Source: an uncultured Planctomycetia bacterium (lineage in GTDB: Bacteria > Omnitrophota > Gorgyraeia > Gorgyraeales > Gorgyraeaceae). Taken from it: a stretch of 64,000 nucleotides of DNA. Under the pieces are notes generated by a model that worked only from the letters and a program-made list of their open reading frames with translations, ran no database searches and was not told the DNA's origin. This document shows, one piece after another, positions 6,001 through 54,000 of the stretch (position 1 is the stretch's first letter; the number at the start of each line of letters is the position of its first letter). Position numbers and translations under genes: made by a program. The stretch spans positions 283,819-347,818 of the forward strand of contig CAYPYS010000001.1 of assembly GCA_964415355.1 (NCBI GenBank), in the 5' to 3' direction.

Positions 6001-9000
6001 TCCAAAACCAAAAAGTCTCATAATTCTTTTGCATCTTATCTCAATGTTATTGACGAACTTTTTGTCCTTATTCCTTATATCCTGTAAATAGAGAAAAGCC
6101 TTTTCGAATAACAACACCTCTGTCAGGCTTTCGGGAATATTAAATACGTATGCATCTTTTTCAGAACTTAATATATATTCCTCATATTCATTTACTATCT
6201 TCTCTTGAATCTGGAATCGTTCTTCTGTCCTTACAGATTTACTGTTTCCAAAGCCTGCAAGCTTCCTGATCCCCTTTCTTACTTCATGCCTTACCTCTTT
6301 AATCAAATCTCCATATGCCGAAGCCAGTTCTCTATCATTGAATCTTAAGGCATATGCCATAGCAAAATACCCTATCCATAAAAGCGTCACTGCCCCGTCT
6401 AGATTCTCAAGCTGGCTCTCTACGCTCAAAACATCCAACGTCCTAAGACTATGGAGCCTATCAACTAGTTTTAGCATTACGGCTTTGTTTTCATCCTTAT
6501 GCCTTGCCGCTCTATATAATGAACTGTAGAATAAATGCTTTTTTTGATTACCATGTTCGTCTCTTTCGATTGTAAGCAACTCAACATACCTAGCCACCCT
6601 GTCTCCAAAGTTATGCTTTATCTCTCTGACTGTAGCTAAACCATCTTCGGGCAGATCATGTAACAGAGCAGCCATTATAATATCGATATCCAGTTGACCA
6701 AGCACCATAACTATCTCTGCTACAGCCGCAGGATGGCCTATCTCAGGAGTCCCTCTTTTCCTAAAACTGACCTTTTTTACCTGCGCAAGCCTTATAGCTA
6801 AAAAATCATATGCCTTTTTTATTAGCCGCATGTCTCTTTTGTCCACTTTTTCATCAAGAAGTTCTTCGATTCTCTTAAAATAACCCAGTTCAACGCTCTT
6901 GGTTCTAATATAACGTGTTAACAAGATCCCAGAAAAGAACATAATCAAAATCATCATCGAAAATACAACAAGATTTACTATCAGGTTTGGGTCATTTAAA
7001 AATCTATATAAAAGTAACGCGAGGGCCTCCATGGCGATTATTTTTAGCGTCAATAACTGAAACCCTGTAACGATAAGACTTGTAAAACTCGGAATAAATA
7101 GAGGATCCCATCCCCTGGTCTCGATAGTATTCTTTACTAATAAATATATGACCCTCTTTTGTATAAAACTGTCGTATAAATATCTCTTCTCGAGGAACGG
7201 CTTCATTTTTTCCGGGCAAATACGATAAAAGATATGTTCCGAACAATAATCTTCAAACCTAGCTATATTGATATGCTCTTCGTATTTTTCTGTAGCAATG
7301 GCTCGCGGTTTATGTAGCAAGAAACCCAAGATAACCAAAATAACTGGATCAAATACTGTAAGGATAAAGAATAATGCCATTATTAGATATGCAGACATAG
7401 TAACCGGGACCCGTTCTGCGATCAGCGATGTGATCACAAGCAGAAACATTAAAAATAAAGCGACAAAAATAAGATCTCTTTCTCGAAGTCCAGTTAAAAA
7501 TGACCACTGCATTGTTTCTTCTTTTTCACGAACAGGATATACATTCCTGATAAAGCTGGCAGCTATGGCAGTGAAAAATAAAATTAATAATAATAAACCC
7601 AGACCATATGAAAAAATAAAAGAAAACTTGCCAAAGCGAAGAACAAAAATAGACCCTACAAGGATTATAAGTAAGGGCGCTGAAATCCAATATATTATCC
7701 TGCCTATCCTGAGCATAGGGTAACTATTCGCTATAACATGCAAAATAATAGATAGGGCAAAGAACATTGGAATAAATAAGTCTACAGAAGGTTGCAATAA
7801 CCCCAATAATGCCGTGCTGACAATAGTAATAAATAGTCTTCCGTCAGAAAATGCAAAGGTGAGTTTTTCTTTGAAAGAATTTTCTTTTGAGCGAGGAATA
7901 TGCAAGAGGTGCCAGAAAATACGCGCACATAAATATGCTAGAATTACTGGCGGGCCATGCGCAAAGGGTATACCAAATGCTCGGCTTAGCAAGAGAGCCA
8001 GGCCGCAGACAAATATTGCTTCTTCAACAAGGGCTGGCGCAAGCGCCTGGCCTATAAAGCCATGCCCGATCTTATCATATAACCACTGCAGCCATGGAAA
8101 ACGCCCACCAAGAACCTCCAGATCTCCTTGTAGAGATTCTAATTCTTCTTCATATTCAATAAGGTCATCGACCAGGTCCAATGATATAGCAGCCAACAGG
8201 TCGCTAAAAGCCTGCGTTTTGTCATGTTTGTTATCTAAAAATGAAGACAAGGATGCCCCTCCGCTAGATAGCTCAGCCTTAGCTTCATCAGCTCTTGTTA
8301 TACGCGCCTTGGCATTACTAAGATCACCAAAAAGACGTCTTTTTGCTGGGTCTGAATCAGAAGCTTCTACTAAGTCCGCTAATTCATTGCGAGCTCTTTT
8401 TTTATCTTGAACAGCCTCTTTTCTGAACTGGCTTATTTCTTTCGATAATTTTCCCCTGGTGCTTCTTACTTTTCTTCTAGCCTTTGCTATTTCTTTCTGC
8501 TTCTTCCTTATTTGTTTTTGAAGTTCATCATCCTCAGTCATCCCGAATTCAGCAAACATACTCATCTGCCCAGGAGAAACCCTGGTTTTTCCGCGTCCCC
8601 TCCACGCCATCGCAAACATGAAAGCTGTAAAAATCACCATCACAAAATCAGCTCTAAGTATACTTTCAACATTGTTGAAAGTATACTTAAGCAGGGCGAA
8701 GATGATAAAAGGTAGTGCTAGTGAATATAGAGTGATATACTTTTTCTGCACAGCCTCCGATACTCCCTGGCTCTTATAAGTTTCCCAATTAGATGCAGAC
8801 CAGATCTCAATAACCCCACCCACCCCTGCTATAACGACTTTGCTTAATCTCTTTATGCCGGCCTCTTTGCATAATCTACTACCTAATGGTAAACATCCAT
8901 TACTATTAAACCCTTTCCCTCCTTTATCAGGAATAACTCTGATATAAGACAAGCTCTTATCTTCTCCTATCAACAGCTTAACTTTTCCATCTGAAGATCG

Positions 9001-33000: not shown

Positions 33001-36000
33001 CCCTATCTTCTCAAAACTTTTCTGATATATCTCGGGAGAAACTTTCTCCTTGTCAGGCTTTGGTGTCTTCACCATCATCACAAACGCGCCGACGGCAAGA
33101 AGTTCTTCTATTATGTCTATTAAAAACATGATCCCTTGTTCTATAAGAGGAAATATATAACGTTCCAGGAAGACATGGTGGAGAATAAAAGTTAATACTG
33201 TAATTGCTAAAGCTAGCCCAGCTCCTTGAGCTCTGAGCCTGCCTGCTTCTGCAATGTCTCCCTGTTCCTTTTTATCTTTAAACTCATCTCCTACAGACAG
33301 AAATTTACTAGTTACCCCAATTAAAACTGCTGTGACTAACAAGATAAATAACACATCCCAGACAATATCAGGAGAAGGCCCTGCCTGGATAAACTGTGGC
33401 AAACTTAACATTTCAACAATGTTGACATTGTCAAAGAAAAGGTTTACTTGGTTGGCAAAATAAAAAAGTGGCAGAGGTATGATACAGCGCATCCTTGATC
33501 TGTCGAATAAAGATGATACAACAAGCGCCAACAAAAGAAGTACGCTTATTAACAATAAAACTTCTTTGGGTAAATTTAGAAAACGATCCGTCGCTAGCTT
33601 GCTTCCGGTTATAATCCTGTCGACGCCCTCTGGTGTTACCGTAGGAATAATTGGTGACGGTGTTACAACCGGCCCTCCAAAAATCCCTTCACCCAGGCCG
33701 CTTATAATAGAAAGAGGCGCGGAGATACATGACATTAATAATTCATCGACAGCTTGCCTGATTCTGGAATCTTGTTTTTTCCTGCGCCTAACATTAGTAA
33801 TACCTACTTCGAGCGCTTTAGCCACATCTGTCGTACTAATCCTCTTTCGCCCATTATTTCTTAGTTTCGATGCTATAACTTCTACATTCCTATGTCCAAA
33901 ATGTCCGTCTGCATTCCTTCCTTGTCCTTTTTTAAATCCTTCTTTGTCTAAAAATTCTGACAAGCGACCCTCTGATAGTCGTATAGCTCTCATAACATCA
34001 TTTGTGCCAACGCCTAATCTGTTAGCTAAATTCCTGCTGGTCTTTCTATGAATTTTCCAATAGGCTCCTGTTGCTGCTTCGCGCACTTCACTCTCACTAA
34101 GATCAACAGCTGCTTTACGCGAACAACTTACAACCATCATAGGGATAACAATGTTAAAGTGTATACTTAAAGATTGCTTCGCACCTATGGCACTCGCAAT
34201 GACAGAATACAATGCAATAAGGGCGATTATAGCTAACAATAGGAGGATAAGCTTTGCTCTGGAGAAAGCTAAGCTTGGTTTCTTTTCTTCCCCTTTATTT
34301 CCATTTAATAAACCATCAAGCAATTCTCGGATTCTGTGATCTTTTTTCGTCTTTACCCATAAAGTCGAACTATTAACTCCGAGTACAGAAGCTACATCTT
34401 TCTGTGTAATATTTGATTTCCGTGTAGCACCTGAGCTTCTCGTTCCTCTTAAATATTTTATAGCAGCCGCGACATTTCTATGTCCATAATGTTTTTTATT
34501 CCCAACTGCCGAACCTGTTACAAAATTCTTTTCTCCTAAAAATTCTACTAAGCCGGGCTTGGACCTCATAATAGCACTCTGAACATCATCTTTGCCAACG
34601 CCTAATCGATTGGCTAAGTTCCTAATATTCTTTTTTCTAAACAACCAATATATACCTCCTGCTGCCTTACGCACTTCACTCTCACTAAGATCAACAGCGA
34701 AGTTTGTACGGTTAGACCCTGCCACAAAGTCCTTGTCTGTTGTATCTACCTTTAATATAAGTTTTCTGCCATCACCTGAAACTCTTGTTGCGTGGTAAGA
34801 AACCGGCTTTTTACCATCAGGAATAAATACAAATATCTCCTTAGCAGCCGTTTCAAGCCTAACATCTGACGCCAAGATAGCCTGTGCCTTCTGTAAATTT
34901 ATTGCGCCTTCAGATATATCATCCAAAACAAGTCCATTCTCTATCAATAGAGTTATTACATCGATCCTTGCCTCATCCATGATCTCAACAAGCACGCTAA
35001 CAAGGCAATTCTCTAGCAGTAAATTGTTAATATGGTACCCAAATGCCTGGTTTGCCTTCAGGTATTCTTCTCTGTCCTTACCTTTATAGTCGACTTCTCT
35101 TCCACCGAGCTTTTCTATAAGCTCCATGAACTCTACTCTTTCTTCAAAGACATATAGGATGCGTTTATTTTTACCCTGGATTATATGCTCTACGGCTGCT
35201 TTTCCTAAGAGACTGCACATGGCCATGTCAACTTCAGAAGTATCAGCTGACCTATAGAGATAATCTATCTTTCCAGCCTCTCTGACTTTTATACCTGCAG
35301 ACTCGCATAGATGGCTTATGATGGCTGTAGTGATACGTCCTGCATCCTTTAGTTTTGGATGTCCAAAGCCGTCGACTTTTCCTTCAGCCTGCTGAAAAGC
35401 CATTCCTGCAACTTCGTCTTTACTAAAGGCGTTTCTCAATACTTCTTCATTATTGGCAAAGCCCTTGTCTATCTTTACGCCTTCCGAAACGATCACTATT
35501 GCGTAGCCGTAATCCTTATAGTAAGCCAAGAGGTCTTTTCCTAGCATTTCAAGGTCAAGGTCTTCTTTTTCAGGTATAAGGGCAAAGGCTACATTGGCTC
35601 TTGCGCCTATAGCCATGGGTGCAAAACCAGCGTTTCTCCCAAATACCTCTATTACCAGGATATAGCCAGTAGAGGAGGCATCTATTATTGCGTTCTCTAC
35701 GCCTAGCGTGCCTGCTTTGACAAAGCTGTCATAGCCATAGGTAGAAGCCCCATGAGGAAGGGCAATGTCATTATCCATGGTCTTGGGAAGGCCTATGATT
35801 AAAAATTCAGGAAGTATCTCTTGTAACCTGTAGGATGCTCCATTAGTGTCGTCTCCTCCGCAGGTTATAAGGCCGTCTAGCTTTAAGACCTCAGTAATAT
35901 TTTTTCCGATAAGTTCGGGTATACCGCCTTCGATGTTCTTCTCGCTAAATGGATTAAACCTGGATGTGCCAATGATAGTAGCTCCTTTTGTGCGGTGCAG

Positions 36001-39000
36001 TTCTGCTTCTTCCAGCGTAATAGGAGCTGCTTTTCCTAAAAGTTCCTCATCTGCCAGGCCTTTCCAGCCGTTCCTTATTCCGATTATTTCTATGTTGCCT
36101 TCATCATGTGCTCTTTTTACAGCTGAATATATGACCTCATTGTGGCCTGAGGCAGGTCCGCCTCCTGTGAGGATACCGATCCTTTTTGTTGGTGAGACTG
36201 TGCCGGCAAATAGAGCCACCCCTATTCCGTAAGTATACATTTCAACATTGTTAGATTGTGAAGTTAAGAGTTCTAAGGGAATAGATATGAATGCATCATT
36301 GAATGTGGATAAAAGAGCAGTGACAAGAATTGCTATGCAGAGCAGAATAAGGACTGTCCAACGTGGCGAACCTCGCGGAGATTTATTGTTTCTCCAACCC
36401 TTTGATCCAAAAAGACCGAGGAACATAAATGCGTATGCGAGAGATTGCTTCACACCTGCGGTATTCGCAATGACGTCGTGTTTATACATCGCGATCAGGG
36501 ACACGCTATCGAACAAATTAGCAAACGGTACAAGAAACTCAAGAAGCTCTGGATATATATCTATCGCGATCGGTAATGCATAAGAAGTGGCTCCCCACAT
36601 GGTCCACGCAGACTGAACTGACATTGCGATGAGGCCAAAGATCGACGTTTGTCCAGCAAAGCCTTGGCGTAAAATAATGCTGCAAATTAATAATCCATAC
36701 AAGATCGCAAATATAATAATAAAACTAATCGGATTAGCAATTAATCTAAGGGATATCCTATTGAAAATCGTGTCGATAATAGGCTGTTTCTTATCGGCAG
36801 ATCTATTTTCTAAGCTGTCTTTAACTTTTCTTAGTATCTCAATTGAATCGCACATAGACTCTGTAAGAATTATACACCGAGGTGGCGCATCCATATCAAA
36901 GATATATCTCGTCACGGTCTCCAATCTTCTAAGATCTTCTATATCTAGCTCCTTCCCTAAAGCCCTGAACTCTACACCTTTTAAAGCGGTGTCTCCTAAC
37001 ATAGTTCTTATATTAACTAGAGTATCCTCTGCGCACTCTGCCTCTCCTGCAAGAAGAACAACGGGAATATTGCCTCTGTCTTTGCCTAGTTTTAGCAAGG
37101 CTTCACTAAAACGAGAAGGATATTCAATAACGTCTTTATCTGTGAATAGAACTGGAGTTTCTTTCAAAGTAGAAAGATTCACTGAGTAACTTCTAAATAA
37201 CATTAAAAAATCTTTGGTAAGTGCCATAGGATCTTCTATCATCTCTCTGCAAGCTGGGTATAGCATTAATAAATCTTCAGTAAAATCTCCTGGCCTAGCA
37301 GCTATCCACTTATCTAATTTATCCAATGTTACCCACTTCACAGCATGCACTTCTTCGTTTGGATAGATCTTCCCGTCAAATCTAGCAAAGGCAATATGCA
37401 TTGGCACATATTCACTCTTAAAACCAGAACCGTCTTTCTTTAAACGTTGCGAGATAAAACTCATTGGTGTACCAAAAATTCTAAAATCTACATCGCTATC
37501 CCTAACCTTTCTCTCATTTCGTAATTCTTCTATAAATTCCCTGGGTACTGTTACTTCAAGAGATTCTCCGCTTATAGAATGACCTGCAAAAGATATATCC
37601 CAAAGACTAGGATTATCCTTAGTTGAAGCGCGTTGCTGAAGAAGTACCTGTCCTTTTGAATTTGATACAAAACATTTCATATGCTTGTTTAATAGACCCA
37701 ACTCATGGATTATTTTTCTGGGAAGACTACCCATGTATATTATTCTCCCATTACCATCCTTTTCAAAATAATCTAGGATCTCGATTCTTTGTCTTAACTC
37801 TAATAGCATCTGAGTAAAGTCAGATTCTTCTTTATGTCTACTTACTATATCTAAAATTATTTCAAGTTCTCCTACTATCTTTCCATTTTCCTGATAATAA
37901 ACAATTAATGCATCTAATATTTTTATAACTATATTAAAATTAATATCATATAGTTCTCTATTATATAAAACATCGATTAGGCGAGCATAGGCTTCCAAAA
38001 ATCTCTCCTGCTTGCCATGCATAAGACCCGTTAGAAGATTCATTGTAGCAGAAGATGCTGAATCAAAATGCTTGGGTATCCCAGTAAGCATAGAACGAGC
38101 TTCTTTTTTTATTAAAGCTGTGACATTAAGATCTCTTTCTGCAGTGCTCCTATCATGGCGCACCACCCAATCAAACAACTCCAAATTCTCTTCTAAGACT
38201 TCAGATCTATCATTAACTATAGTTATCACATCACTTAAATCAGATATACTTGTCAAGTAGTCTACTATAAAATCAGCTCCTTTTAGTAGTCGCTTAGCAA
38301 TCTTTGTTCTGTTGCTCAATCTCTCTCCAAGGGTTTCTTCGAGAGCACCTACAATAGAAGCCTTATCTAAATCTTGAACTCCTTCTGGTGATACAGGCAT
38401 AATAAAAGCTACTCTTGCATGAGGAAAACTCTTCTTTAAAATTTTAACATGTTCTATAGAAGCCATATGAAATAGCAAGATCTTGCCTTCTCTAGTAAGC
38501 TTATCGAGCTCTTTCTTCTCAGATGCATAGTCGTCTCCGTAGATTTCCCATTGTACATCAAACTCCCCTCGATCTTTTTTCGCCTCAAACTCTGCTCTAG
38601 TTACACATTTTTTATCGTCTCCTGGGCCACGATAAGGTCGCGTTGTCCAGCGCGTAGGACATACCACTTCATCTGGATATTGTCCCTCTAAAAAATTCAT
38701 AAGAGTACTTTTGCCTGCGCCAGAAGAACCTGCCACAGCAATAACAGTCTGCCTTGTCACTTCTTGACCTATATCATTATATTTTTTGTAGATTTGATGT
38801 AATAAGAAAAGACCTATGCCTATTATAGCTAACATAATCTCGTAACTTAACACTTTAATGTTGTTGAAATGTAAAATTAGGGTGAGGACAGCGCCTATCC
38901 ATGCAAAGATAAAACCTACAAAGATCAGAGAGCCCTCTTTGTCGCTTCCTATCTGTATTTTTAGTATCTCTTTTTCTGATAACTCAGGATTCTTCTGATG

Positions 39001-42000
39001 CAGGAGTTCATGTTCAAACACTATATTCTGTGCCCATTTAGGGAGATAACCATAGGCGGGATGATATTGGATAGTATCAGTAGTTTTATCATATGAGGCT
39101 ATTGCAGTACTATAATATGCTATGAATCTCGGAGGGCCTCTTTTCTTTATTGTATCTATTATAAAGGCAAGATATATTGCAAAAAATAACATGAGAAATT
39201 TCACGGCCTTTGCAAACTTAAGGTTAGTAAGGGCTATCCATGCTCCCTGTAAGGCAACCTTAGGAGACATAGTACTCTGTAAATTAGCAGGCAATGTCTC
39301 TGTACGAAGCGCATCTCTCCTTGAAATGCTCAAGGCCAATTTTTCTGCCCTTGATGGCATCTCTTCAAACGTTAAAAGCTCTGATAATATCCAAGCGTCC
39401 CACTCTCCTGGAACAGGCTCTGAAAAACCGAGACGGTTCTTTACATCATCTAATAACCAGCTAAGAAAACGGGTCAATTCTTCCGCGGACATTCCCCTGT
39501 CTTTAAAATCCTTATAAGCCCGTTTAGCGATAGGCAATAATAACTCTAAGGATGTATTTTTATGATGCCGCAGCCATCTCTGGATATCCAAATCGGCTTC
39601 CAAGATGCCATGACTGCGATACCACGTAAACCTCCCACTTGCACGCCAATAGTCCAATCTGCTTCCTACAGGCAGCCCTGTATTAAGCCACTTTTTAGTT
39701 TCGGCGTCATGCTCACCAAGCTCCCAGAGCGACCATTCAATTAGTCTGGCCATTCTTTCTTCGCTCTTGATCTGTGCCTTTTTACGGGCAATCAAAAGAT
39801 CTTCTAAGGAGATCTTTTCTCCTATCAGCTCCTCGATGCTGACATAGGGCTTTTCCATTACAATCACGCCAGCCCCTGGCTGATGGAACCATCGTCTATC
39901 AGACCAGCGATAAGAAGCGTCAAAAAAGAGAAATCCTTCCCGTTGCAAAGAATCCACCCATTGCTCGATTGCCTTGAATTCAAACGGAAACGGCATAGGG
40001 CATTCATTGACAATAATATTGACATACCAATCACTGAAAGCCAAAAAGAGGTTTTTCTGCTCACGATTTAAAGCTAGGAATAAGTCACGCAACTCTGGAA
40101 ATTCAGGGTCGCTACCCACAGTAATAAGCATGGAGTAGCTGTCTTCGAATAGCATTAATAGTCCCCCTTGTTTTAAAATGCGCTTATTTTCCTCTACAAA
40201 GGAACTGAAAAATCTTTCTTCTACATGATGCATAACAGTATGTTGTATTACTACATGGACTTCTCCATCTCTAAAAGGCAAGCTAGTAGGATCAGTCTGA
40301 TGACAAAAACTTACTCTCTCGCCTTGGTATGGTTCATTAACTCCCATGTCACAGCCTATAACCCTAAGCCACGGCCTGCCTCTGACCATCTCCCTTCCAA
40401 GAAGATTCTTGCCCGCCCCTATATCAGCAACAACTACATCCTCGCCTGTATGGTCGTAAAGCGCATCGATATATGGCATGACTAACTCTAAAGTAGGTTC
40501 GAACTTATTCCCGCCCTGGCGATAGAGTCTGTAGGCTTCTTGAAATTTAACATCTGTCTTAAAGCGAATGACTTTATCATAAAGAACCTCTTGCGCTTTT
40601 ACAGGATCATTTGCATGTTCTCCCAAAGTATCTATGATCCTCTCGGCTAGGTCAGAGGGAAGTTTGTATCGCGAATATCTAAGTGTTAGTAGCCCTAATA
40701 TTACTTCTCTTACTTCCAAATCCTCTAAGGCTATAAGAGGATTCCAAGCTAATGGAAATTGATTTTCTTTAATAGCGACTGCACCTAAAGCTTTAGTTAA
40801 TAGATTCTTCCACGGTGGACTGCGCGGAGAATCACTGTTTCGCGAGTCTTGTGATCCGAAAAGGCCTAAGAGCATAAGAACAGGGCCTATAAGAGATTGC
40901 TTAACCTCTGTGGCGGTCGCGATGGAGGCAGTAGAGGCAAATATACCTGATCTCCCCAACATCTGAATAAGGTATATTAACATTAACGAAATAGAAAATG
41001 GATTAACGATCCACATCATAAAACCATCCCGGAACCTTGGATATCTCCAGGTAATCCTGCCTTCTGTAATAGGACGTCCCATAGGAGAAGTCGCTGTTAT
41101 TTCTCCCTCTACAGAGCCTTCTCGTATGTCTAAATGGCATATCCTGATCACTGTTAGGAAATGAATTAACGCGACAATAGAAAATATCCAATAACTGGCT
41201 GTAAGAAATGTAAGATCAAGGACATCAAAGGAAGTGACAAAAATCCACGCAGCAACACCTAATATAACAAATATACCTGTTGTCCATTGCATCCATCTGC
41301 GATATTCTCTTTGAGCTCTAATAGCTGTATTCTGATAACCGCGTTCTGCAACCTCAGGTCCCATATTGGAAAAAGGATCATCTGAGTCAGGTTGTTCTAT
41401 AATTTCTGGCATAGGCCTGAAGAAATCAAGCCACCACGCAGTCCCAATACCAATGCCAATACAATAAGCTATAAAAAAAGCCTTAAGCCCTGCATGTCCT
41501 ATGTTCAATAGTGCATTTTGATTTATAGAGTACAAGACCCATGAAACCCATGCCCCTATGAATAGATACCATAACAGCCTATAGAAATTCAGCATTCGCC
41601 TGTTTATAGAGTCATCATCGGAAACCGTGCCTATAAAGATAAGGAAAGAACTGGAGAGTACAGAAAAGGAAGACATGTCAGAGACTATTCCTGGCGGGGC
41701 ACGGCCGGCAAATATGCTTCGAGCAAAGTCGAGGAAGTGCCGAGATGTCCCGGCGAGGCCAATCTTTGTGCCATCAAATACCAAAGGCAGCCAGTCTACA
41801 TTTTCCTGGAGCGTCATAAAAAACCAGCCAATGCCAAAGGCAGCTACTATGATAACAATCAATCCGATTGCAATAGCCCATAGGCTAAATTCTCTATTTT
41901 TTGCTTTAGATAGATCAACATCTCTTGCAACATGTTCGTTAGCAGCTCTACGCTCTCCTGTCTGAGCCTTCTTTGTCACGCTCCTAGCCCACATAGCTAA

Positions 42001-45000
42001 CAAGAAAAATACCGCAACAATAACTCCTATAATAGCTATAAACGGATTTCCACCAGCCCCGGCAGAATAACCCACGTCTGACATTAAAAATGCCGTTAAA
42101 ACAACGGGAATAATAACATATGCTTTTGCCTTGATCGCCTTTTCTGCCTCTGTTTTAGGCAAAACTAAGAAAGGTATCAACCGAATAATATCCGAGATAC
42201 ACCCTGCAAGAAATAAAATATTTATCTCACCAAGAAAAATCAGAACATGTGATCCACTGTTCAAACCAATACGAACTAATATAAAACCTGCGATACTGTG
42301 TATAGCTGCAGGCATTATTAACGTAAAAATCCAACCCAAAACAGAATCAGGGAAAACTTTAATGTCAGCTTCAAAACCCATAGCAAATCTCCTTACACTT
42401 GCTCCCTCTGCCCCAAACAATCTAGCTACCCATACATGAATCATTTCATGAAGTAACGTCAGACCAAAAATAGCTGGTATCACTAATCGAGCAGCATCTG
42501 TTTCCTTCCACACATTTTTTAAAGAAGCCAAACTTACGGAACCATTTAAGAGATCAGATATAATCCCATAACCAGGGATGCCAAGTAAAACGATATAGAC
42601 GGAAATTACGAAAATGGAAATGATAGCCACTGTTAAAATTAATGGAGCACTTTCTTCTTCTGGATCATTATCTTCTGGATCACTATCACCCAATCTGCTG
42701 TATGCTTTGGTGTTTCTTGCAATAATCATTATGATTAAAAGTGCTGATGCTGCAATTAATATTGCTTTAAAAATCATTTGAGATGTAGCAGGACTGAGAG
42801 TAAGTTCAAGTTGCTTTGACTGCTCCACGGCAGCAGTCAAAGCTGTTGCGTCCTGAGGCTGCGGTATATATGTATCAGCTATAAGTCCTCCGAAAAAACC
42901 TATCAAGAAACAGATAACCGCAGGGCCAAAAGAAGTTCTATCTCCTGGCTCTTTTCCTAATTCTGAAAGGCCTAATCCGAATACCATCCCTACAATTCCC
43001 AAAACAACAGCAGTTACTAAAGGAGTAATTTCAGTGGAAGAACTTGTCTCTGAGTTTACGCAGCCAGATAGGAATAAAAGAACAGATAATATTAATAATA
43101 TAAGCGGGGCTCGTGAATACCAAGAATCTCTATCTTCTGACTTAGCAAAGATAGAACCCATGAATAGAAAACCAAGAGATTGCTTCACACCTGCGGTGCT
43201 CGCAATGACAGGACTCAGTGCGCCATTAAAATTAGCAGCAACAGGCATCATAGAGCTTGAAATTTCTGACGCTATAAAAAAATGATAGATTATTAAACCT
43301 ATAATAACTAAAAACAGAAGCTGGAACATGGCTTTGATAATTTTTTGGCGCATTGTAAGAGGAGGGCCAGTTTCAATACATCCTCCGCATTGTACAACCT
43401 TACTAGGGATCTCAACGGATGGGTTCAATTTTTTGCCTACTATTCCTAAAATAATGTGCACAAGAATAAATAGAATGCCTCCTATCCACGCAGCTGCTCT
43501 TAGAGAAAGATCTTTATATATCAGAAGCCACCCAACTCCTAACATAAGCAAATTAAAGATAGACCATAAAAACTTTCTTACTCTTATATATTCCTTAGAT
43601 ACATTGGTGTCAAAGACAACGTAGCTGCCTCCACTGCATTGTGCACTTTCCCCTGTATTATGCTTACGCTGGCCAATACCTAAGATAATGAACATAGAAA
43701 CATAACTTTCCGTTTCAGGCGCGAATAAGCCAGAACCAAATATTTCACCCCAGGTAGACAATACAATACTAAAATTCTTCGTAGCTAACCATGCTGCAAT
43801 AGCTGCAACACCAAGAAGAACCAATCCTAATTTAGGTCGTTTATTTAAAAAGGATGCGATAGCGAACCACGTAGCCCCAATTATAGCAGCAGAACCACCT
43901 ATGGACCATAAGATAGGCTGTATTAAAAGATCCTGAACGCCTTCTGCGCCATGATAGATCTTCCAACGGTTAAAAGGCATGACTACTTTAAGATCGAATG
44001 TCAGCTTCGCATACAATGCAAACAAAATAGCAAAAACAACAAAAAGTGCAGCGCCTATCACAATCATCCAAAACATGGCTTGATTAGTAAGTTTTGTTCG
44101 AGCGCGATATAAAATCTCTCTTTCACTTGGCGCAGCAAAATCTTGTCGTGCTAATTCTTCTTCCGTTTGTCTCCGCGGAAGTTCTTTTTCAAGAAAATCT
44201 TCAAAAATATTTAAACGCTCATCGTCAGATCCGCCTCTTCCTGTAGTACAAAATAATACTGGCAATAATATATCAGGAGAAGCAGGGAGATGTGAAGTTA
44301 AGAGCTCTATCGCAGGCGATATAGCGGAATTTGGGTTATTATCAGGCAACGCTGATATTAGACCTAAAACTAAAGCGAAAATAACAATAATTGCAATAAT
44401 ACAGAACGCAGTCGAAAATTTCAGTTTTTCTGATGATTCAATATAATCATATTGTGTTTGTGTAGCAGAGACTTTCCCTAACTGTTGCCTGCGTCTTCTT
44501 AGATCCTCTGTAGCTTTTATTATTTTTCTTATGACTAAGGACATAATGATAAGTAAAACAACCTCCCCTGCTAAAAAAGCATATGAAAACGTATTTGCAT
44601 CTTCACCATGATGTCCTGGATGTCCTGCGGCTAGTACTTGAGAAATAGGAATTGCTGAAAGGATTAAAGCAAAAACAGGTATTGCGAGGATCTTAAGAAG
44701 TTTATACCATGGAGGGCTGCGTGGAGACTTGTTATTCCTCCAACCTTTCGATCCAAAAAGAGTTGCGACTATAAGCGCAGAACCAATAAGAGATTGCTTT
44801 GCGAAGTTTATCCCGAGCGCAGTCGAGGAACTCGCAACAACATCCTTGCCTGCCATAGCAATCAGAGACATATTGTCGAATAAATTCGTAAACGATATAG
44901 AAAGCCCAAAAACATGTCTAAAAGGAGTTTTTAACATCCAGATCAGATTTCTCCAATCAAACAAATCCAACACCGACAAACATCCTATAACAAAAACTAA

Positions 45001-48000
45001 GATAATAACTGAAACTATTACAGGCACTCGCCGCGCCACCTTTTTCTTTATTTCTTTATATTTTTGACCTGCTGCCTCTCTTCTCCTAAGATTTTCTATT
45101 CCTTCTGCATCGGGTCTTATGATAACTATAGCCTCATTATCTAACTTTAAAGAATCCCAATAAAAATTAAGGATTTTGTCTGTAACAACACCAATTAAAT
45201 TTATAATACTATGAGCCATTATAGCGGCTAACATTCCGGCAAGCCTCCCATATAAGATATTGCCTATGGTATAGAGAATAAGAAAGAACCCCCTATAAAG
45301 AAAATACACGATTCTAGTTTTTGTAGAATCAGCACTATGAGCAAATGAAAAAATACCACAAAGGACAACCGCCCCTAATATCAAATTATTGAGCATTGAG
45401 TCAAAGACAATGACATAACAACCAATGTATAAAAATTCCTCAAACAAAGGAAATATAGACACCTTGAAGAAACTTGTTACTATGCTCTTTTCCGGAAGCA
45501 ATCCGTTTATTAGAGGGGCTTGTATAAGTATTGATGCTTGCACAGCAAGCAGAGTAAGAATATGCCATATTAGCAAAGAAAATCTAAAATCTTGAATTTG
45601 GATTAAATCAAAAATATCCCATATCAAACATGAAGATAAAACTACTGAAAAAACAAAGAATATAACTCCAGAACGCCATGAACCAATAATATCTAAATCA
45701 TTTTCTTCTGGATACTTTGCAGTTAAGATCTTTTTCACTAAACGCCATATCAAATAAAACTCAAGAGTCATTATAATAAAATTGGCTATAAGAGCTCCTG
45801 TTCTAATGTCAAAAGCCCTGGCAAGAAGGATTAAAGTAAGAGTGGGTATTGCGAGGATCTTAGCAAGTTTATACTTAGGCGGGCCGCGGGTAGAATTGCT
45901 GTCTCGCGAGCCCTGTGATCCAACAAGACCCAAGAACATAAATGGAAGACCGGCAAGAGATTGCTTCGCTTCGCTCGCAATGATGGAATAGATTCCCGCT
46001 TTCACGGGAATGACATTGGTTGTAGAGAGGAAATAGGTTATACCTATGAATAATAATATTGCGGTTGCTGCTGTGGGGGCTGCTGGAGCAGTTGGCTTAG
46101 CTGAATCGCCGTTAGTCTTTTCATTAGCTATAACTATCACTTTTTTTAAATACTTACGGTCTTTGATAAAATTTTCGTCTTCTTTGAACCACTCTATATC
46201 AAGAGCTGGGAATCTCTGTTTGTCATTCAATAAATCACGCATCTTTTCAAAGACCTTTGAAGCCAAAGCTTTTGCTTCAAGATAAAGCTCTATAATGCGT
46301 TCCTTGAGTTCCTCATGGGAATCCTCTTTAGCTATCCTGCTTAATGTTTCCGCCTTGTCAAATACCTCATCTACTTCTTTAAGAGCCTCTTCGATTTCGT
46401 ATCTAAACAAACGCTTCTGAGCCGTTATAGTCTCTATCTCCGCACTAAATAATTCCACAACTGTCTGGGATGAGTAGACTCTATCTTTTTCGTCTTTTAA
46501 CAAGCTATAGTCATAATTATCATCGAGTGAGTTTAGTAACTCACGTCCTTCTTGTATCTTTCTGTAAGCTGCCCCAGGATTAGGTTCTCTACCAGGCTCT
46601 GCCTTAGGATCTTTGCCTGGTTTTACTCCTTTGAGTAATTCTTCTGCTTGTAAAATAATTATTGCAAGACGATTCTCAAACCTTGCTAATTCCTCTTCAA
46701 TAAACTGTCTACTGATATCATGTATTATGCCTGAGAAAGTTCTTATATTGCTAATATATTCACTATTTTTTATATTCTCAGGTGCTGCTTTTAATACATC
46801 TATTAATTCATTGCATTTCTCATGTCCAAGCACTCTATCCCTAGTCTCTTTATGCGCTACATAGATATCCTGCACATAAGGCACCAGACTAATCACAAAT
46901 TCTGTTATCTCTATTGCCAGAAGCAATGCAATACGGACTGCTTGTATTTCCTCTAATGACTGCCATAGATTGCCTCTATCGTCCTCTCCTGGTTTGATGA
47001 TCTCTAGTGCTCTAGAATAATTTTCCAAAGCCCCCTCATAGTCACGTGCGGCAAATAAATGCCACGCCTCATCGGCATAATCTGCCAGTCGGCTCTTTAT
47101 ATTCCTGAAAATTTGAGCGTTTTGTATTGCTATAAGGCTGGTGTAGATCTCGTCTGCTTCAGTAGATATTTCTTTTAATAAAGCATCGATATCATCATGC
47201 CTGATAAATGAAGTAGGCAGCCTCATTTCACGCAGTAATGCCTCTGGATCCTTTAAGGATTCAGCCAGGTTAAGGGCCTCGATCAAGTTAGGCTTTCCGT
47301 CTTCTGATAAGGCTTGTTCTATTGCTTTTATCTTTTCCATAGATGCTCCAAGCCATTTTTCTATACGCGCTGTCCTTATCCTTATCGTATCTGCTTTAAT
47401 CCTTTGTGGTTCACCTGTCTGTTCAGTAGTAATTCTTATAAACTCTACGAAATCTTTCCTTTGCGTAGCCAATGCTTCTTGTTCTTCCCGTTCTGCCCAT
47501 TCTATTCTTTTATTTCTAAGCGCCTTTACCACCATAACTGGATTAAACATCTTTTCAAAAATAACGCTATCGTCACCGGCAACCTCTATCTTAACAGTGC
47601 CATACCGAAATACATTTGCCCAAAATCCCTCCAGCAATGCCTCTTCGCTCTGGATCTTATCAAATGGTATCTCCTTTTTGTCGCTATCTTCTGGCGGGAA
47701 GCCAGGAAATGTCGGTATCTTAAAAACAAACCCTATCCTGTCTTCTCTTAAGATAAATTCATCATCTTTCCAATCCTCAACTGCATACCAGAACTTGTAT
47801 AATGCAGCCAATAAAGGTACAGCAGCAGAAATAATAGCTCCTCCGCCTATCACTCCCGTTAAATCCAGCAAGAAAACTATCAATGATATTAAAACAATAC
47901 CTTCGGAAATAAGCCCTGAATAATCATTTCTCTTATCCTCTTCATCATCCTCTTTTTTATTAAAATTAAAAGCTGCTAGATGCATTAAAAATATCAATAT

Positions 48001-51000
48001 TACGCTTATGCCGAGCCAAACAAGAATGCCGAGAGAAAATACTTTGGCAACAGTTAAATAGAGCATGACCGTAATTGCTCCATGTGCTAATAAACTTAGG
48101 GCTGGCAAGAAAGCCTGCCCTATTAAAATAAACGGGTGTTTACGATAGTAAATCTCTTTATCTTCTGACCAGCGATGCGCAGGGAAAAACGGCAAAAGCC
48201 TTTGCTCACTTCCTATGTTTTTCTGCTCTATTTCTCTCATGGCCTTCTGACGAGCTTTTTCAGCCTCTACTCTCTTTAAAACTGCCTCATCCGGCTCCAA
48301 GCCTCTTCGCCTGGCAATCTCTATATCCATAAGATCTGTATCATGCGCTGCTCTTCTCTTCTCCTCGATCTCCTTGGCTTTCTCTACTATAGTTACTACC
48401 TCTTTTGCTTTAGCCGCAGAAATGGGCCCAAATACTATCTCTTTCTTGTGACCAGCTGAATCTATTTCAACAAAGCATGTCCCAAAAATACCCTGTAAAA
48501 AAGTCGACTTTATGCTATTATGCTGATATTTTTCCAAGTCTATAGACACATCTGCTCTTAAAGAAAATAATATGTTTTCAGTCGCTGCGACACGCCTGTC
48601 AGTAACTACAATAAAATCATTTACAGAATCATGCCAAACATAAGCCAAAAATGCGCCATATATGCCTAAGACTATTCCGCTTGTAAATATGAATGTACTT
48701 AAAGACATGATCTTTAAAATACCTAGCTTAAAAACAAAGAATGGTAAAACAAATATCGTTAAGGCTAAAAGAGTAACAGGCAGAGCTATGCGTATTAATA
48801 GGTGAGAAATATGTTTTGTCTCGCAAAACAAGACTTTTTCTCCCTCTGTAAGCCATTTGAAATCCTTGCCTTCTAAGACTGGCAATTCTTCTTCAGCGCC
48901 ACCTTCAGTTACTACTATGGCATCTCTAGGAGTTTCGTTAGTCTCATATGCCACTGGCGGAAGATCAGTAGCGACACTGATCATGGTATCTTTGGTCTCT
49001 GATTCTTCAATTAAAGTTCTTAAAGCACTGAGATCTGGTTCTTTTGCCACAACAGGGATCCCTTCTATTGCAGTTTTTACTGCTCCTGCAATGCCCTGGC
49101 CTATTTTCTCTATTTCTTTCACGATATCTCTTAGGTTATTCTTTATGCGCGCGCGAATAATACCTATTTTAGTATTGATATCTGTCAGTTCGACTTTTGG
49201 AAAATCAAATAAAACAGGCTCTGGTACTTTCTTAGATATAGGTATTGATGACAGATCGAGATCGCCTCCAGTAAGAGGAGACAATAACGCATGGCGCTCA
49301 CGACCACCGCGAGACAATGATTCTCTAAAGCTATCGCTGAGCATGTCTTGGCTACGGGAAGAAACTTCTTCTCCTGCTCCGAATGAAGCCATTACTGCTG
49401 TTGCAGTGCCAGCAGCTGCAGCTCCTCCTGCAGCTATCTCTGCTGCCTCTGCAACTCCTGCAGCCAATTCTGCAGCCGCAGCCATCCTTCGCGCTTTCAT
49501 GATACGAGAAACAGCAGTTATTGCACCAGTTAAACTCGCAAGGGAAATGCCTCCGCCAACACCCATTAAAACAGCGGCTTCGCCTGGCTCTTTACCTGTA
49601 ACAAACATTATGCCGACAACTACTACTGTTACAAGGCCTATAACAAGGCCTGCGACAATGAGTATCTTTGCCAAAAGCGAGACCTCGCCATCTCCATCTT
49701 CATCATCTCTATCTCTTCTTCTCGGCCATTCTCTTTCTGGTCTATCCTTCTCAACAGGCCTATCCTTTGGCTTTATCTCAAACTTTGGTAGTTTTGGAAA
49801 CAAGTCACCTAGCTTAGGAGGATCCCATTCCCTTGGTTCTCTTTTAGGCCTCTCGCGTTTTACCCTAGGTTCTCTCTTAGGAGTTGGTCTTTTTTCACGG
49901 TCAGGTTTTCGTTCAAGCAATCTCTTCAGCACAGAAATAATCCCACCTGCTGCGCCTATTGCGCCAGCTCTCATCATAGCGGCGATCGCCTTAGGCGTCA
50001 GCCTCGGCCCCAGATCACTGATTGCCTGGATAATGGCGCTGGATTCTTCTTCATCATCAGCTTTTAAGAAATTAAGGACAAAGCCGACGCAATCCCGCAC
50101 CAGTGAGATTGAATCATGCAATACGGCTCCGAAATTATCGTTAAATAGTTTAGCTATCGGCCAATCTTTTGGCATCCCAAGAGCCACTAATGCTGCTTCC
50201 TCTGAATTCATGTCTTGCTGCGATATACCTTTCCTGCCTATCTCACTAAAATAAACAGTGTGGCTGAGGGCAATATTTATATTCGCAAATAATTCCAGCG
50301 CATAATTATCAAGGGTCTTGCGGAACTTGTCCAATGTAACGGAATCTTTATTGCCTTTCCTCGCATTTTCTATAAGATTGTCTATGATATCTTCTACCTC
50401 TAGCTTTGTCTTAAAGAGACGGTTTAGGGCATTTTGTAACTTAGTCTTGTCTTTACTATATTTATAGACATCCAGATGTTCCATGATATAGGCAATGCGT
50501 TTTTTATAGCTCTCCAGGCTATCAGAAGAAGCTCGTTTAAGGGCATTCACTAAATGATCAAGCGCATCTTCTGCTCCTTCTACTTCCAGGGAATTTGATT
50601 TTCTAAAAACCTGTACCAGCATAACAATGCCTTCATAACAATCTCTGCCGACTAACTGAAAACCTGCCCAGCGAGCGATCTCTCTATTTACTGCAATGTT
50701 CTGCTTTATAAGCTCTTCTCTCTCATCCGTAGAATCATTATTTGCTAAAATATCTTGATCGTCACCCGAAATCGCCAATTGCTCGTTTAATCTATCTAGA
50801 TCTTCTGATAATTCTTTGGCGCGCGCTTCTAACCAGTTTATATACTGATTTACGCCATCTTCTCTATCTATAAACACCCTATCCATCTGTTCTGGAGTCG
50901 TCTTTCCCAGCATTTCCTCATGGTTACGCAGCATTTCTTCTCCCTGCCTAAGGTCATTTTCCTCTGCTGCTATATCTGCAACATCAGTTTCTAACTCAGC

Positions 51001-54000
51001 CTGCTCGTCTTGTATGCCCTGGTCCTCTGTTTTTAAGCTTTCATTTTTCTGGCCTAAGTCTACTTTTCTATCATTCAGCTTTCCGTCTTCATCGATGATC
51101 TCCTGTCTTTGAGAAGACAATCTAACGCCTTCCTCTGCTGCCAGAGCCAGGTCTGTTTCAAATCTGTTGTTTTGCGCCTGCAGCTCTACCTTGTCAGTTG
51201 CTAATTGTCTTTTTCCTTGATCTAGCGCCTGCCCCATTGCTTTGTGTTGAGCTTCCTGTTGTGCCAACACCTGCAGTTTTTGCGCTAGTTCCTGCTTAGC
51301 GGCTTCCAACTCTTCATCCCTGCTCCATCTCCTTATAACTTCTCTCACTAATTCTTTGTATAGGTCTTCTATATCTTCTTTGCTATTCACGGCTTGTAAG
51401 CACTTGATCAAAAAATTAGGCTTACTTAACTGATCGATAAAACCTATGAGTAACGGGTACTCTGCTGAATCTTTTATGACTGGTTCCTGCCCTTCAGTTA
51501 ATTCTCTAAAAACTTTTTCCAGGCCTTTTAAAGCCAAGCTATCAAAGCCTTGTTCGGTTTCAATGGACAAGGTTCTTGGGTCAACTACATCATCTGGTAA
51601 TGATCCTCGCACCCGGACCCAGACTTCATCAAAACTCTCTCCCCCGCTATTCCTAATAGAAGTCAATCTTTCTCTTTCTTCTAACCGCGCTTTCTCATCT
51701 TCTGATTCCTTTCTCTGTATGGCTAATATATCTCCGGCTACTTTGTGTTCAGTCTTCTGCTGGTCCAATTCTCTTTCTCTGGCTTGCAATGCTAGCTCTC
51801 TAGCCTTTAATGCTTCTATTCTTTTGCTTAATTCATCTTGTCTTTTTCGAAGAGCAGCTTCCAGTGCCTTTAATTCTTCATTTCTTGTCTTTAGCGCCCT
51901 TATATCAGTTTCTAATTGCCGTCTTCCTTCCTCTACCCTTTCTAAATTCTTACTATAACTCTCTCTTCTATTATCAAGAGTTTCTCTCCTTTGTCTTAAA
52001 AACTCTCTTTTATTTTCAAGGCCTTGTCCCCATTCTTCAAGCTCTCTTCTCTGGCGCTCAAGCTCTTCGGCATTCTGCGCCTTTCTCTCTTCAGCAAAAA
52101 GCCCTTCATGCTGCAATGTCCAGACAAGCAATACAAGGTAAGCTGAAAATCCATATTTAAGGAGATTAAGCCTCTTCGAGAATTTCTGTACTATCTTTTC
52201 CTTATCTTCTTCGCCGTTAAAATCTATCCATACACGGGCGATCCTTCTCTGGCTATCAGAGTCTTCGCCGCTTCGTATATCTCCGATCATCGTTAGATAG
52301 GTATTTATCTCCTCGCCTGCGGTAGATTCAGCTTCGGTAAATTTCTTCAAATATGTTATCAATACAGCAATATCTTCTAAGTCTCGATCGCTGAAAAAAT
52401 TCGCCTCTATGACCATAGCCCCTGCTTCGTCCCTATGGTCGCCGCTGACAATATGACTGATCTCGTGCATTAACTGAGCTTCTATCAGAGCTAAGACTGC
52501 GTGTCGGCAAGCGCGTATTTCTCTATTCTTCTTTTCCTTAGAAAGATAGATAAGCAAATAAAATAAATCCGGACTTATATGCACTGTTGCAATGTATCTT
52601 TCAAAATCAACTTGCACGCGCCATGGCCTGCCAACCAATTCATAGTCAATGATACACTGCAGCCTCCCTCTATGCTCCCCTGGTCTTTTCTCGTCTTTTA
52701 AATAGTTAAGCCATGTCAATGCTGTGCGCTCTTTGTCTGTCTTGGGTTTTCTGCGGCTCAATAAGCTCAACCCGCTAAGCTTATTGAGATTAGAATCCCT
52801 CATGACTTTTCTTAAAATAACATAAAATTCTTTTGGTAATTCACCATTAAGTTCAACGCCCTTTATACTAACCGGCAAGCCGACCCTAAACATGCCAGAG
52901 GCCCTGACCCCATGCTCACCTGGTTTTTGCCCTCCAGAATTAGGGTCAACGTGTGGCGTTGTCGGATCTTCCGGAGTTTTAAAAGGTTTGATCACCCAGA
53001 CTGGTTTCCCGTCAACAGCAACATAGTGCTTATCTTCCTGATGGTCATAAACAGCTCCTTCTTTGCTGCCAAGTAAATAATCTTCCCAGGTCAAGTGACG
53101 CATGACTGTCTTCCAGATCGCATTCTGCACACTTGGAGAGCTCATAGGATCACCTGGTGGAAGGAGCGGCGTGACTTTAGTGCTGGCCAATAATTCAGTG
53201 CCTTCGTCGGTTTTCCCGTTATTCATCTTATTAAAGGCCTCTACTGCCATCGTCTCCACTACCTGGTCAGGAATCCTATCATCTCTAACAGCTATGTCAC
53301 TGCGGTCAAAGCCAGAACTTGCCAGGTTCTGGGCCCTCTGTATGATTTCTTCTCTCTGCATTCCTGCTGCTTCATCGCTTCCTAACCAAGGTTCATACCT
53401 ATTTACAAGCTCTCTTGCTCCTGTAGATAATCTTGTCTTAGAATGCGCCTCTTGGCCGCTAGCAACAAATCCTCTGGCTTCCGCAAAAGCATCCCAGGCA
53501 AATTCTACTGCCCGTGCCAATTGCCCTGGCATCCCGTCTATCTCATCTTCTACGGCCTGCTTATCTCTTTCTAATACCTCGACATATCTCGTTAAAGCCT
53601 TGACAGACTTTGATAGATCACCCAGGTCTTCTACTCCTTTTGTCATCTCTTCTGGCCGACTATGCATTACTGACTCTGCAACTCTATAACCATCGATGTC
53701 AACAACCACGTTATCCCCAGCCTGAGCTATGTCAACTTGCTTACCAAGTTTCCTCTGTATTGTCTTTATAAGATACTCATTGAGTTCCCTAGAGCGCATT
53801 GCAACAGTAACCCGGCGGCCTGGCGTGGCAGCTATTTTTTTCCTGACTGCCTCTGCCCTCTCTATTGCAGCCCTGCGCTCAGCTTCGCGATATCGTATAG
53901 CCTCTACCAGGACTTTATGAGCTCTTTTCAGCCGCCTACGTTCCCTTGCGGCTATCGTCTTTACTTCCTGTCTCGCTTTAGCTTGTTTAGCTTTAACTTC

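Follow-up and report, generated by a model that had tools for sequence, protein, structure and literature searches.

Candidate intramembrane protease domains of two families, interleaved with a repeated KQSL linker, in a giant multi-enzyme open reading frame of an Omnitrophota bacterium

Introduction

Myxosortase, MrtX, is a CPBP protease that cleaves the tripartite MYXO-CTERM signal (PMC11980579). TmcP, from the TMcin pathway of Staphylococcus aureus, belongs to DUF3267 and to the site-2-protease (S2P) clan. This intramembrane metalloprotease of four helices cuts the leader of the TmcA precursor beside a transmembrane (TM) helix; replacement of both H68 and the distal D158 of TmcP by alanine abolishes cleavage of the precursor (PMC13252029). 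Bacterial CAAX-like proteins with non-catalytic roles are also known, and in SpbR the motifs are degenerate, reading HELYMR, FIYLD and QIVAI (PMC12260438). In this study, we analyzed a 64,000-nucleotide stretch of DNA, hereafter the window, from an uncultured Planctomycetia bacterium that GTDB places in the Omnitrophota (family Gorgyraeaceae; assembly GCA_964415355.1, contig CAYPYS010000001.1, positions 283,819 to 347,818). Its minus strand is occupied by a giant open reading frame (ORF), in which a CPBP-like domain and a DUF3267 domain lie in the same membrane-embedded stretch, bracketed by copies of a repeated linker marked by the tetrapeptide KQSL.

The giant ORF resembles the giant genes described from Omnitrophota, which likewise comprise tens of thousands of codons and encode many TM helices, and it shares with them kinases, methyltransferases, NUDIX domains, enzymes of sugar metabolism and HEAT repeats (West-Roberts et al., 2023; bioRxiv 10.64898/2026.06.07.730766). 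It matches the 'multi-enzyme metabolic' class of membrane-anchored Omnitrophota giants (bioRxiv 10.64898/2026.06.07.730766). The accessible text of the earlier of the two studies links giant Omnitrophota proteins to predation (West-Roberts et al., 2023). As far as the accessible text of both extends, C39 and S8 peptidase domains are proposed as candidates for processing, signal-peptidase-II domains are also discussed and the cleavage points are stated to be unknown (West-Roberts et al., 2023; bioRxiv 10.64898/2026.06.07.730766). Unlike the present analysis, that text makes no mention of CPBP, of DUF3267 or of linkers of the KQSL type.

Results

The minus strand of the window is one stop-free frame of 21,333 codons (nucleotides (nt) 1-63999), defined by a stop-codon scan and by Pfam domains; all features described below lie on this strand, and residue numbers, in amino acids (aa), are those of this frame. 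The frame is coding, since many Pfam domains fall in it, and it runs off both ends of the window, so the gene must be longer than 64 kb. Default ORF lists omit ORFs that touch the window ends and therefore display only small plus-strand ORFs. An artefactual origin of the giant ORF is ruled out by its 21,333 consecutive sense codons together with its many in-frame domains. A Kyte-Doolittle scan detected about 31 TM-like hydrophobic segments across aa 6066-7666. The initial annotation had proposed that two different intramembrane protease-like modules are fused within this polytopic stretch, and profile searches bear this out, with DUF3267 (PF11667) above its curated cut-off and CPBP (PF02517) around its own. 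Judging from sequence comparison, the stretch holds two intramembrane protease domains that are genuine despite their extreme divergence and in which the predicted catalytic residues are present with the exception of one Arg.

The DUF3267 match ('putative zincin peptidase') covers aa 7178-7278 (nt 42166-42468) and profile positions 2-101 of 108. It falls in a four-helix core at aa 7120-7279 (nt 42163-42642), which hydropathy resolves into TM1, TM2 with the HExxH motif, TM3 with Pro7230 and TM4 with Asp7270. The score was 27.4 bits (E 4.6e-6), or 28.1 bits on a 200-aa tile, above the curated cut-off of 27.1 bits; a 1,000-aa chunk gave only 24.0 bits, and with a 1,900-aa query the match was lost. 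TmcP itself scores just 26.5 bits (model positions 2-100), so the S2P-like module of the giant ORF fits DUF3267 as well as TmcP does. As had been noted from the sequence, LLHEMIHVWV lies inside a predicted TM helix: HEMIH (aa 7184-7188, nt 42436-42450), the candidate zinc-binding and catalytic motif, occupies positions 12-16 of the 19-residue helix 7173-7191. Pro7230 (nt 42310-42312) stands on a conserved profile column and pairs with the AGP-motif Pro of an M50 protease. Asp7270 (nt 42190-42192) is found 86 residues past H7184, compared with an H-to-D spacing of 90 residues in TmcP, and we infer that it would provide the third zinc ligand. HExxH, Pro7230 and Asp7270 all fall on conserved columns, because in silico mutation of these residues lowered the native PF11667 score of 27.4 bits: H7184A or H7188A abolished the match, E7185A cost 5.0 bits, P7230A cost 5.5 bits and D7270A cost 2.8 bits, the alignment then stopping at profile position 93. 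Mutation of two further residues gave a change of −0.7 bits (N7260A) and +1.8 bits (P7276A).

The S2P-like module thus has about the same PF11667 score and coverage as TmcP and shares with it an HExxH motif in a TM helix, a conserved Pro, a distal Asp and, as predicted by hydropathy, a four-helix core. In contrast to TmcP, which is a small four-helix protein encoded in a peptide-biosynthesis operon, it is one domain within a 740-aa unit of a giant ORF, and no recognisable TmcA-like precursor or TmcE-like escort accompanies it. Among annotated plasmids, its best tblastn matches were classic M50 site-2 proteases with CBS domains. When the module is aligned with a Rhizobium M50 site-2 protease, 28% of the residues are identical over 109 aa; HEMIH pairs with HEFGH, and VARLFG with VARYFG. 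The Peptidase_M50 model (PF02163) reached 19.2-19.5 bits over positions 4-42 only, below its cut-off of 27.2 bits, and the RseP model of NCBIfam reached 14-16 bits against a cut-off of 147. The module therefore resembles M50 proteases (RseP, SpoIVFB, mjS2P) in its HExxH helix and the segment that follows, which align, and in the cytoplasmic-leaflet position predicted for its active site, but differs from them in having no NxxPxxxxDG motif and no PDZ or CBS domains. We consider it very likely that this domain is a true homologue of DUF3267 within the S2P clan.

HExxH occurs three times in the giant ORF, where 0.48 copies are expected. The other two copies, at aa 3845 (nt 52453-52467, LMHEISHIVSGDH) and aa 8330 (nt 38998-39012, FEHELLHQKNPE), were considered as peptidase sites and rejected: both lie outside TM helices, neither gained family support with queries of 150-300 aa, and both probably arose by chance. 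No other peptidase family emerged from Pfam scans of the window, from sensitive tile-wise searches of the remaining TM-rich regions or from examination of these two HExxH sites.

The CPBP or Rce1-like core domain spans aa 6172-6269 (nt 45193-45486; PF02517 positions 4-93 of 93) and belongs to a unit of 8-9 TM helices (aa 6045-6400, nt 44800-45867), a size close to that of free-standing CPBP proteins. Its residues can be compared with those of MmRce1 (PDB 4CAD), the sole PDB match of a custom CPBP profile that we built from 39 PF02517-annotated proteins gathered with a consensus-like bait (138 positions); the equivalences were read via common columns. Motif 1, EEFLYIG (aa 6187-6193, nt 45421-45441), contains E6187 and E6188, equivalent to E140 and E141 of MmRce1. 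Motif 2, FSFAH (aa 6217-6221, nt 45337-45351), lies where the following TM helix ends and pairs with FallH of the profile, its H6221 corresponding to H173. Motif 3, HSIIN (aa 6263-6267, nt 45199-45213), is found two helices on, with H6263 and N6267, equivalent to H227 and the oxyanion-hole residue N231, as residues 10 and 14 of a helix of 19. The motifs proposed in the initial annotation are therefore present on the minus strand where they had been placed and in the canonical order, with the qualification that motif 1 is incomplete, reading EExxxI and not EExxxR. By alignment, every residue described as catalytic in MmRce1 and MrtX occurs in the module, and the motif-1 Arg is the sole deviation. 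When this Arg was restored in silico at position 6192, the PF02517 score rose from 23.4 to 30.0 bits.

Shuffling leads one to expect 0.25 loose EE..FxxxH..HxxxN/D triads in the whole protein and 0.0025 when only the local 1,800 aa are shuffled, so the CPBP motifs alone are not significant across the whole window. Profile comparison indicates that both modules go beyond chance motifs. The PF02517 search that had been suggested as a check gave a mixed answer: a 120-aa core matched at 23.4 bits (E 7.3e-5, profile 4-93/93), above the curated cut-off of 22.4 bits, an unbiased 200-aa tile covered the full profile at 21.0 bits, below that cut-off, and longer TM-rich queries (234 aa at E ≤ 1, a 1,000-aa chunk, or 1,900 aa) gave no match. 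We attribute the miss at 234 aa to the flanking TM-rich sequence, as a filter or composition effect, because the trimmed query and the 200-aa tiles recover the domain. In NCBIfam, no subfamily model, myxosortase included, matched the CPBP core. The custom profile, run without filters over the whole ORF in 400-aa tiles, had a sole match, at aa 6160-6273 (positions 24-128 of 138, 15.8 bits), and every tile outside the module scored at most 2.3 bits. The alignment stays in register past the bare motifs, with PLFEEFLYIG on PlaEEllFRG, IFSFAHS on lFallHl and LAAIMAHSIINL on llaaillHalnNl. Shuffles in which the six motif residues were held fixed reached the native 19.2 bits in 0, 2 and 6 of 2,000 trials, and implanting the same six residues in 67 other TM-rich windows of the giant protein gave 1.1 bits on average and never more than 10.6 bits. 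Since such shuffles rarely, and such implants never, reach the native score, sequence outside the motifs contributes to it. A comparison of the module with the CPBP alignment by hhalign returned 81% probability (E 1.2e-5, 91 columns).

Like MmRce1 and the CPBP family, the module has a predicted four-helix core with EE in helix 1, FxxxH at the end of helix 2 and HxxxN in helix 4, and like MrtX it is accompanied by signals consisting of a signature, a short helix and a basic cluster. It differs from the family in its setting, a protein of more than 21,333 aa where known members stand alone at about 250-350 aa, in its motif-1 Ile, and in having neither a pairwise homologue in the collections searched nor a match to an NCBIfam CPBP subfamily. 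It scores 15-23 bits, as opposed to 79-151 bits for the members from which the profile was built (an in-sample figure) and 37 bits for MmRce1. Here too, we think it very likely that the domain is a true homologue, albeit a very divergent one.

The initial annotation had asked whether the motif residues of each module face the same side of the membrane, and a crude hydropathy topology does place each set in one leaflet. Around the helices of the S2P-like module, Lys and Arg residues number 16 on one side and 4 on the other, so oriented that the HExxH helix runs toward the cytoplasm; D7270, at position 10 of the 19 residues of TM4, lies with HExxH in the predicted cytoplasmic half. In the CPBP module, two successive helices form a hairpin, the first with EE at its start and the second with H6221 at its end, while H6263 and N6267 lie in the fourth helix. 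EE, H6221, H6263 and N6267 face the leaflet bordered by a DSTKTR loop and by a 52-residue loop with 13 Lys and Arg residues. For both active sites, the prediction is thus a position in the cytoplasmic leaflet of the membrane of the producing cell itself.

Six copies of KQSL occur in the giant ORF, where composition predicts 0.27; all lie within aa 6012-9941 and each is preceded by A, G or V. The linker signature is approximately VIAS·AG[VA]KQSL, followed by a Gly-rich hydrophobic stretch of 10-13 residues that usually ends in GS. In linkers 1-5 there is a polar cluster with 3-6 Lys or Arg residues, and most linkers carry a second hydrophobic segment that resembles a signal peptide or a membrane anchor. 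Linker 1 (K at aa 6012, nt 45862-45996) has a 13-aa Gly-rich stretch and a basic cluster; linker 2 (aa 6401, nt 44695-44829) shows the motif with its context; linker 3 (aa 6939, nt 43081-43215) leads into a lipoprotein-type signal with the lipobox LSGC (aa 6977-6980, nt 43060-43071); linker 4 (aa 7700, nt 40798-40932) ends the S2P-like unit and precedes soluble methyltransferase, guanylate kinase and NUDIX domains; linker 5 (aa 9184, nt 36346-36480) precedes a TM anchor and a phosphofructokinase (PFK) domain; and linker 6 (aa 9941, nt 34075-34209) is the most divergent copy, with a hydrophobic stretch of merely 4 residues before an Asn. Unlike MYXO-CTERM, the KQSL linkers are internal and repeated, have no invariant Cys and match no curated model.

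The linkers divide this part of the ORF into units, and each protease domain occupies a linker-bracketed unit of its own. Unit A, between linkers 1 and 2, contains the CPBP-like domain; unit B (aa 6431-6938, nt 43186-44709), between linkers 2 and 3, is polytopic and belongs to no recognisable family; unit C, between linkers 3 and 4, is the S2P-like unit of 740 aa. Unit D comprises the methyltransferase, guanylate kinase and NUDIX domains, and unit E the TM anchor with PFK. Linkers 2 and 5 lie 2,780 aa apart and share an identical 14-residue stretch, LFGSKGWRNNKSPR, within 80 aa that are 47.5% identical, which suggests recent duplication, gene conversion or strong constraint. A DNA-level search with a two-linker alignment found nothing. 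The lipobox-containing signal of lipoprotein type into which linker 3 leads reads SRAPLILLILSVLLFLSG-C; the internal signal peptide as a whole, RDSWYSRAPLILLILSVLLFLSG-C (aa 6957-6980, nt 43060-43131), is followed by a Ser/Thr-rich segment. Linker 1 is followed by a helix with the AXA-like end LLARA-F.

Elsewhere in the giant ORF, Pfam identified a methyltransferase (aa ~7860-7950), a guanylate kinase (aa ~8420-8550), a NUDIX domain (aa ~8780-8910) and a full-length PFK (aa 9273-9606, 153 bits), in addition to GNAT, two Ser/Thr kinase domains, HATPase_c, further methyltransferases, HEAT repeats, MraZ, and HD_4 with RelA_SpoT. Enzymes of cytoplasmic type are fused in the frame across nt 4000-40600, HD_4 and RelA_SpoT forming a pair of the ppGpp type. 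Upstream of the first KQSL linker, a bPH_2 domain at aa ~5130 (aa ~5130-5200) and a weaker second copy at aa ~5440-5480 lie amid TM helices (nt 47200-48999). The AT skew of the plus strand is positive (+0.06 to +0.15) in nt 40001-46000 alone and negative in the rest of the window, a pattern that fits the dense hydrophobic, U-rich codons on the coding minus strand of the membrane stretch.

The PFK domain gave access to related loci. A metagenome scan anchored on PFK recovered eight loci at 46-56% identity, the remainder being at about 35% or less. In two of the loci, L001 (Ga0315279_10000344) and L008 (Ga0265297_10000029), the PFK frame is open over the entire fetched locus of 15 kb and 21 kb, respectively; being stop-free throughout, these are giant genes too. 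Their PFK domains are 55% (L001) and 48% (L008) identical to that of the window, with no other detectable sharing. In L002 and L004-L007, the related PFK is encoded in ORFs of 1,184-1,804 aa. The open frame of L001 contains RWL[VI]RQIDSHEAGH[LV]LGLSD[KE]EILALD nearly identically twice, at aa ~102 and ~3144, some 3,000 aa apart, as a zincin-like HExxH repeat.

Discussion

Both protease families found here are known, and what is new is their setting: two intramembrane protease domains in a giant multi-enzyme ORF, interleaved with a repeated tripartite linker. That both domains are true homologues and that they act on membrane segments of the cell itself is, as a combined statement, an evenly balanced proposition in our judgement.

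A number of observations weigh against it. No homologue of either module was found in a word-indexed search of 5.8 billion clusters; an exhaustive phmmer search of 1.84 billion representatives returned none for the CPBP module, and DNA-level searches found this module in neither genome contigs nor metagenome contigs. The giant protein itself is absent from the collections searched, because not even a self-hit was obtained. PDB sequence searches with long and trimmed queries of the modules likewise gave no homologue. Both profile scores lie near the family thresholds, and the CPBP match varies with the trimming of the query, disappearing at 234 aa. The CPBP region was chosen by its motifs and its score is gone once the six motif residues are masked, a loss that is to be expected of a very divergent CPBP member. 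The family motif EExxxR reads EEFLYI, Ile6192 standing in place of an Arg (R145 of MmRce1) that is more than 90% conserved in the 39-protein comparison set. For the S2P-like module, the pairwise M50 alignment stops short of PxDG (NxxPxxxxDG), which the module lacks, and for this reason we do not regard it as an M50 member. Topology was derived from hydropathy and the positive-inside rule alone. AlphaFold2 was run on single sequences, given that no homologues were available and that a model built on the CPBP alignment would be circular, and it reached a pLDDT of 53 and a pTM of 0.27 for the CPBP module and a pLDDT of 52 for the S2P-like module; Foldseek searches of the PDB with both low-confidence models returned noise only. 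As regards the linkers, no NCBIfam sorting-signal model, among them those for MYXO-CTERM, PEP-CTERM and GlyGly-CTERM, matches any of the six (E up to 10), they are internal and not C-terminal, and their first hydrophobic stretch is short. Lastly, within the 15-21 kb fetched, L001 and L008 contain neither KQSL nor a CPBP signal nor a counterpart of either module.

One alternative would leave the HExxH module as the only real protease and make the CPBP triad a coincidence, the PF02517 match being a threshold false positive aided by trimming. By chance alone, 0.25 loose triads are expected in a protein of this length, no homologue turned up in the collections searched, masking six residues abolishes the score, and neither PF02517 at 234 aa nor NCBIfam gives a match. 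Yet the alignment is full-length and in register, it is the unique match in 21,333 aa, hhalign supports it at 81%, no more than 6 of 2,000 motif-fixed shuffles score as high as the native sequence, implants attain at most 10.6 bits against 19.2, and the placement of the motifs on four helices matches the CPBP family; we consider coincidence improbable. Somewhat more credible, though still on the unlikely side, is that the CPBP-like domain is a genuine relative that has become a non-catalytic pseudo-protease, serving as a scaffold, regulator or substrate holder (compare S. aureus SpdC, LnsB, SpbR, and APH-1 of gamma-secretase), so that the S2P-like domain alone, or neither, cleaves. The change of the motif-1 Arg to Ile, the extreme divergence (15-23 bits versus 79-151 for in-sample members and 37 for MmRce1) and the documented existence of non-catalytic bacterial CAAX-like proteins (PMC12260438) all speak for it. 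On the other hand, the documented non-catalytic members have several degenerate motifs, whereas here the two Glu, the two His and the Asn are all retained.

If both domains are active, their substrates come into question. They may act in trans on other membrane proteins or peptides, in regulated intramembrane proteolysis, in clearance of signal peptides, or in the maturation of, or immunity to, a membrane-active peptide, with the KQSL linkers as structural or topogenic elements. The known members do work in trans, TmcP on the TmcA precursor and MrtX on MYXO-CTERM proteins; the linkers fit no known sorting signal, and the related giant ORFs have none in their fetched parts. Against action in trans, each protease domain stands exactly between two linkers, the linkers show the layout of signature, short helix and basic cluster that is typical of protease-processed signals, they are confined to the region of the proteases and of the enzyme units next to them, and the window, being one ORF, offers no separate candidate substrate. 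We regard trans action as a real possibility, if not a probable one. A role as weapons or remodelling enzymes acting on envelope proteins of prey or host had been raised in the initial annotation, in keeping with the link between Omnitrophota giants and predation in the accessible part of West-Roberts et al. (2023). Several points speak against this idea: TM helices enclose both active sites, which the predicted topology assigns to the cytoplasmic leaflet of the membrane of the producer itself, intramembrane proteases cut substrates in their own membrane, and the neighbouring domains of the ORF are of cytoplasmic type (kinases, PFK, NUDIX, RelA/SpoT). We therefore hold it to be very improbable.

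The interpretation that we favor is that both active sites, in the cytoplasmic leaflet, would act on segments embedded in the membrane, with the giant precursor as their most likely source; we propose linkers of the same polypeptide as substrates because this is the most economical choice. Cleavage by the CPBP domain would take place in or close to the KQSL linkers, which resemble sorting signals, much as myxosortase cuts MYXO-CTERM, and the S2P-like domain would cut at helix ends or clear leftover helices, as TmcP removes a leader beside a TM helix. The outcome would be separate membrane and soluble enzyme units freed from one polyprotein. Cleavage at the KQSL linkers specifically is doubtful, however, and the full proposal, in which the giant ORF would be a membrane polyprotein with its own maturation machinery and both proteases would cut at six KQSL signals, should be regarded as speculative and unlikely to hold as a whole.

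Our results also bear on how such proteins are catalogued. Both Pfam matches weaken or vanish in long TM-rich queries, so catalogues of giant proteins are likely to be incomplete in this respect, and scans of whole giant membrane proteins, or of large chunks of them, probably under-count such domains, protease content included. If the polyprotein proposal is true, the CPBP and S2P-like proteases would each be set free, the former as a stand-alone enzyme, together with a lipoprotein-type unit and with metabolic enzymes that are either soluble or anchored in the membrane. Such a system would parallel, in a prokaryote and within the membrane, the processing of viral polyproteins. Whether the products of giant genes exist as single chains or as cut pieces is an open question. 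The window offers candidate proteases together with candidate cut sites, and with it the question of cleavage becomes directly testable.

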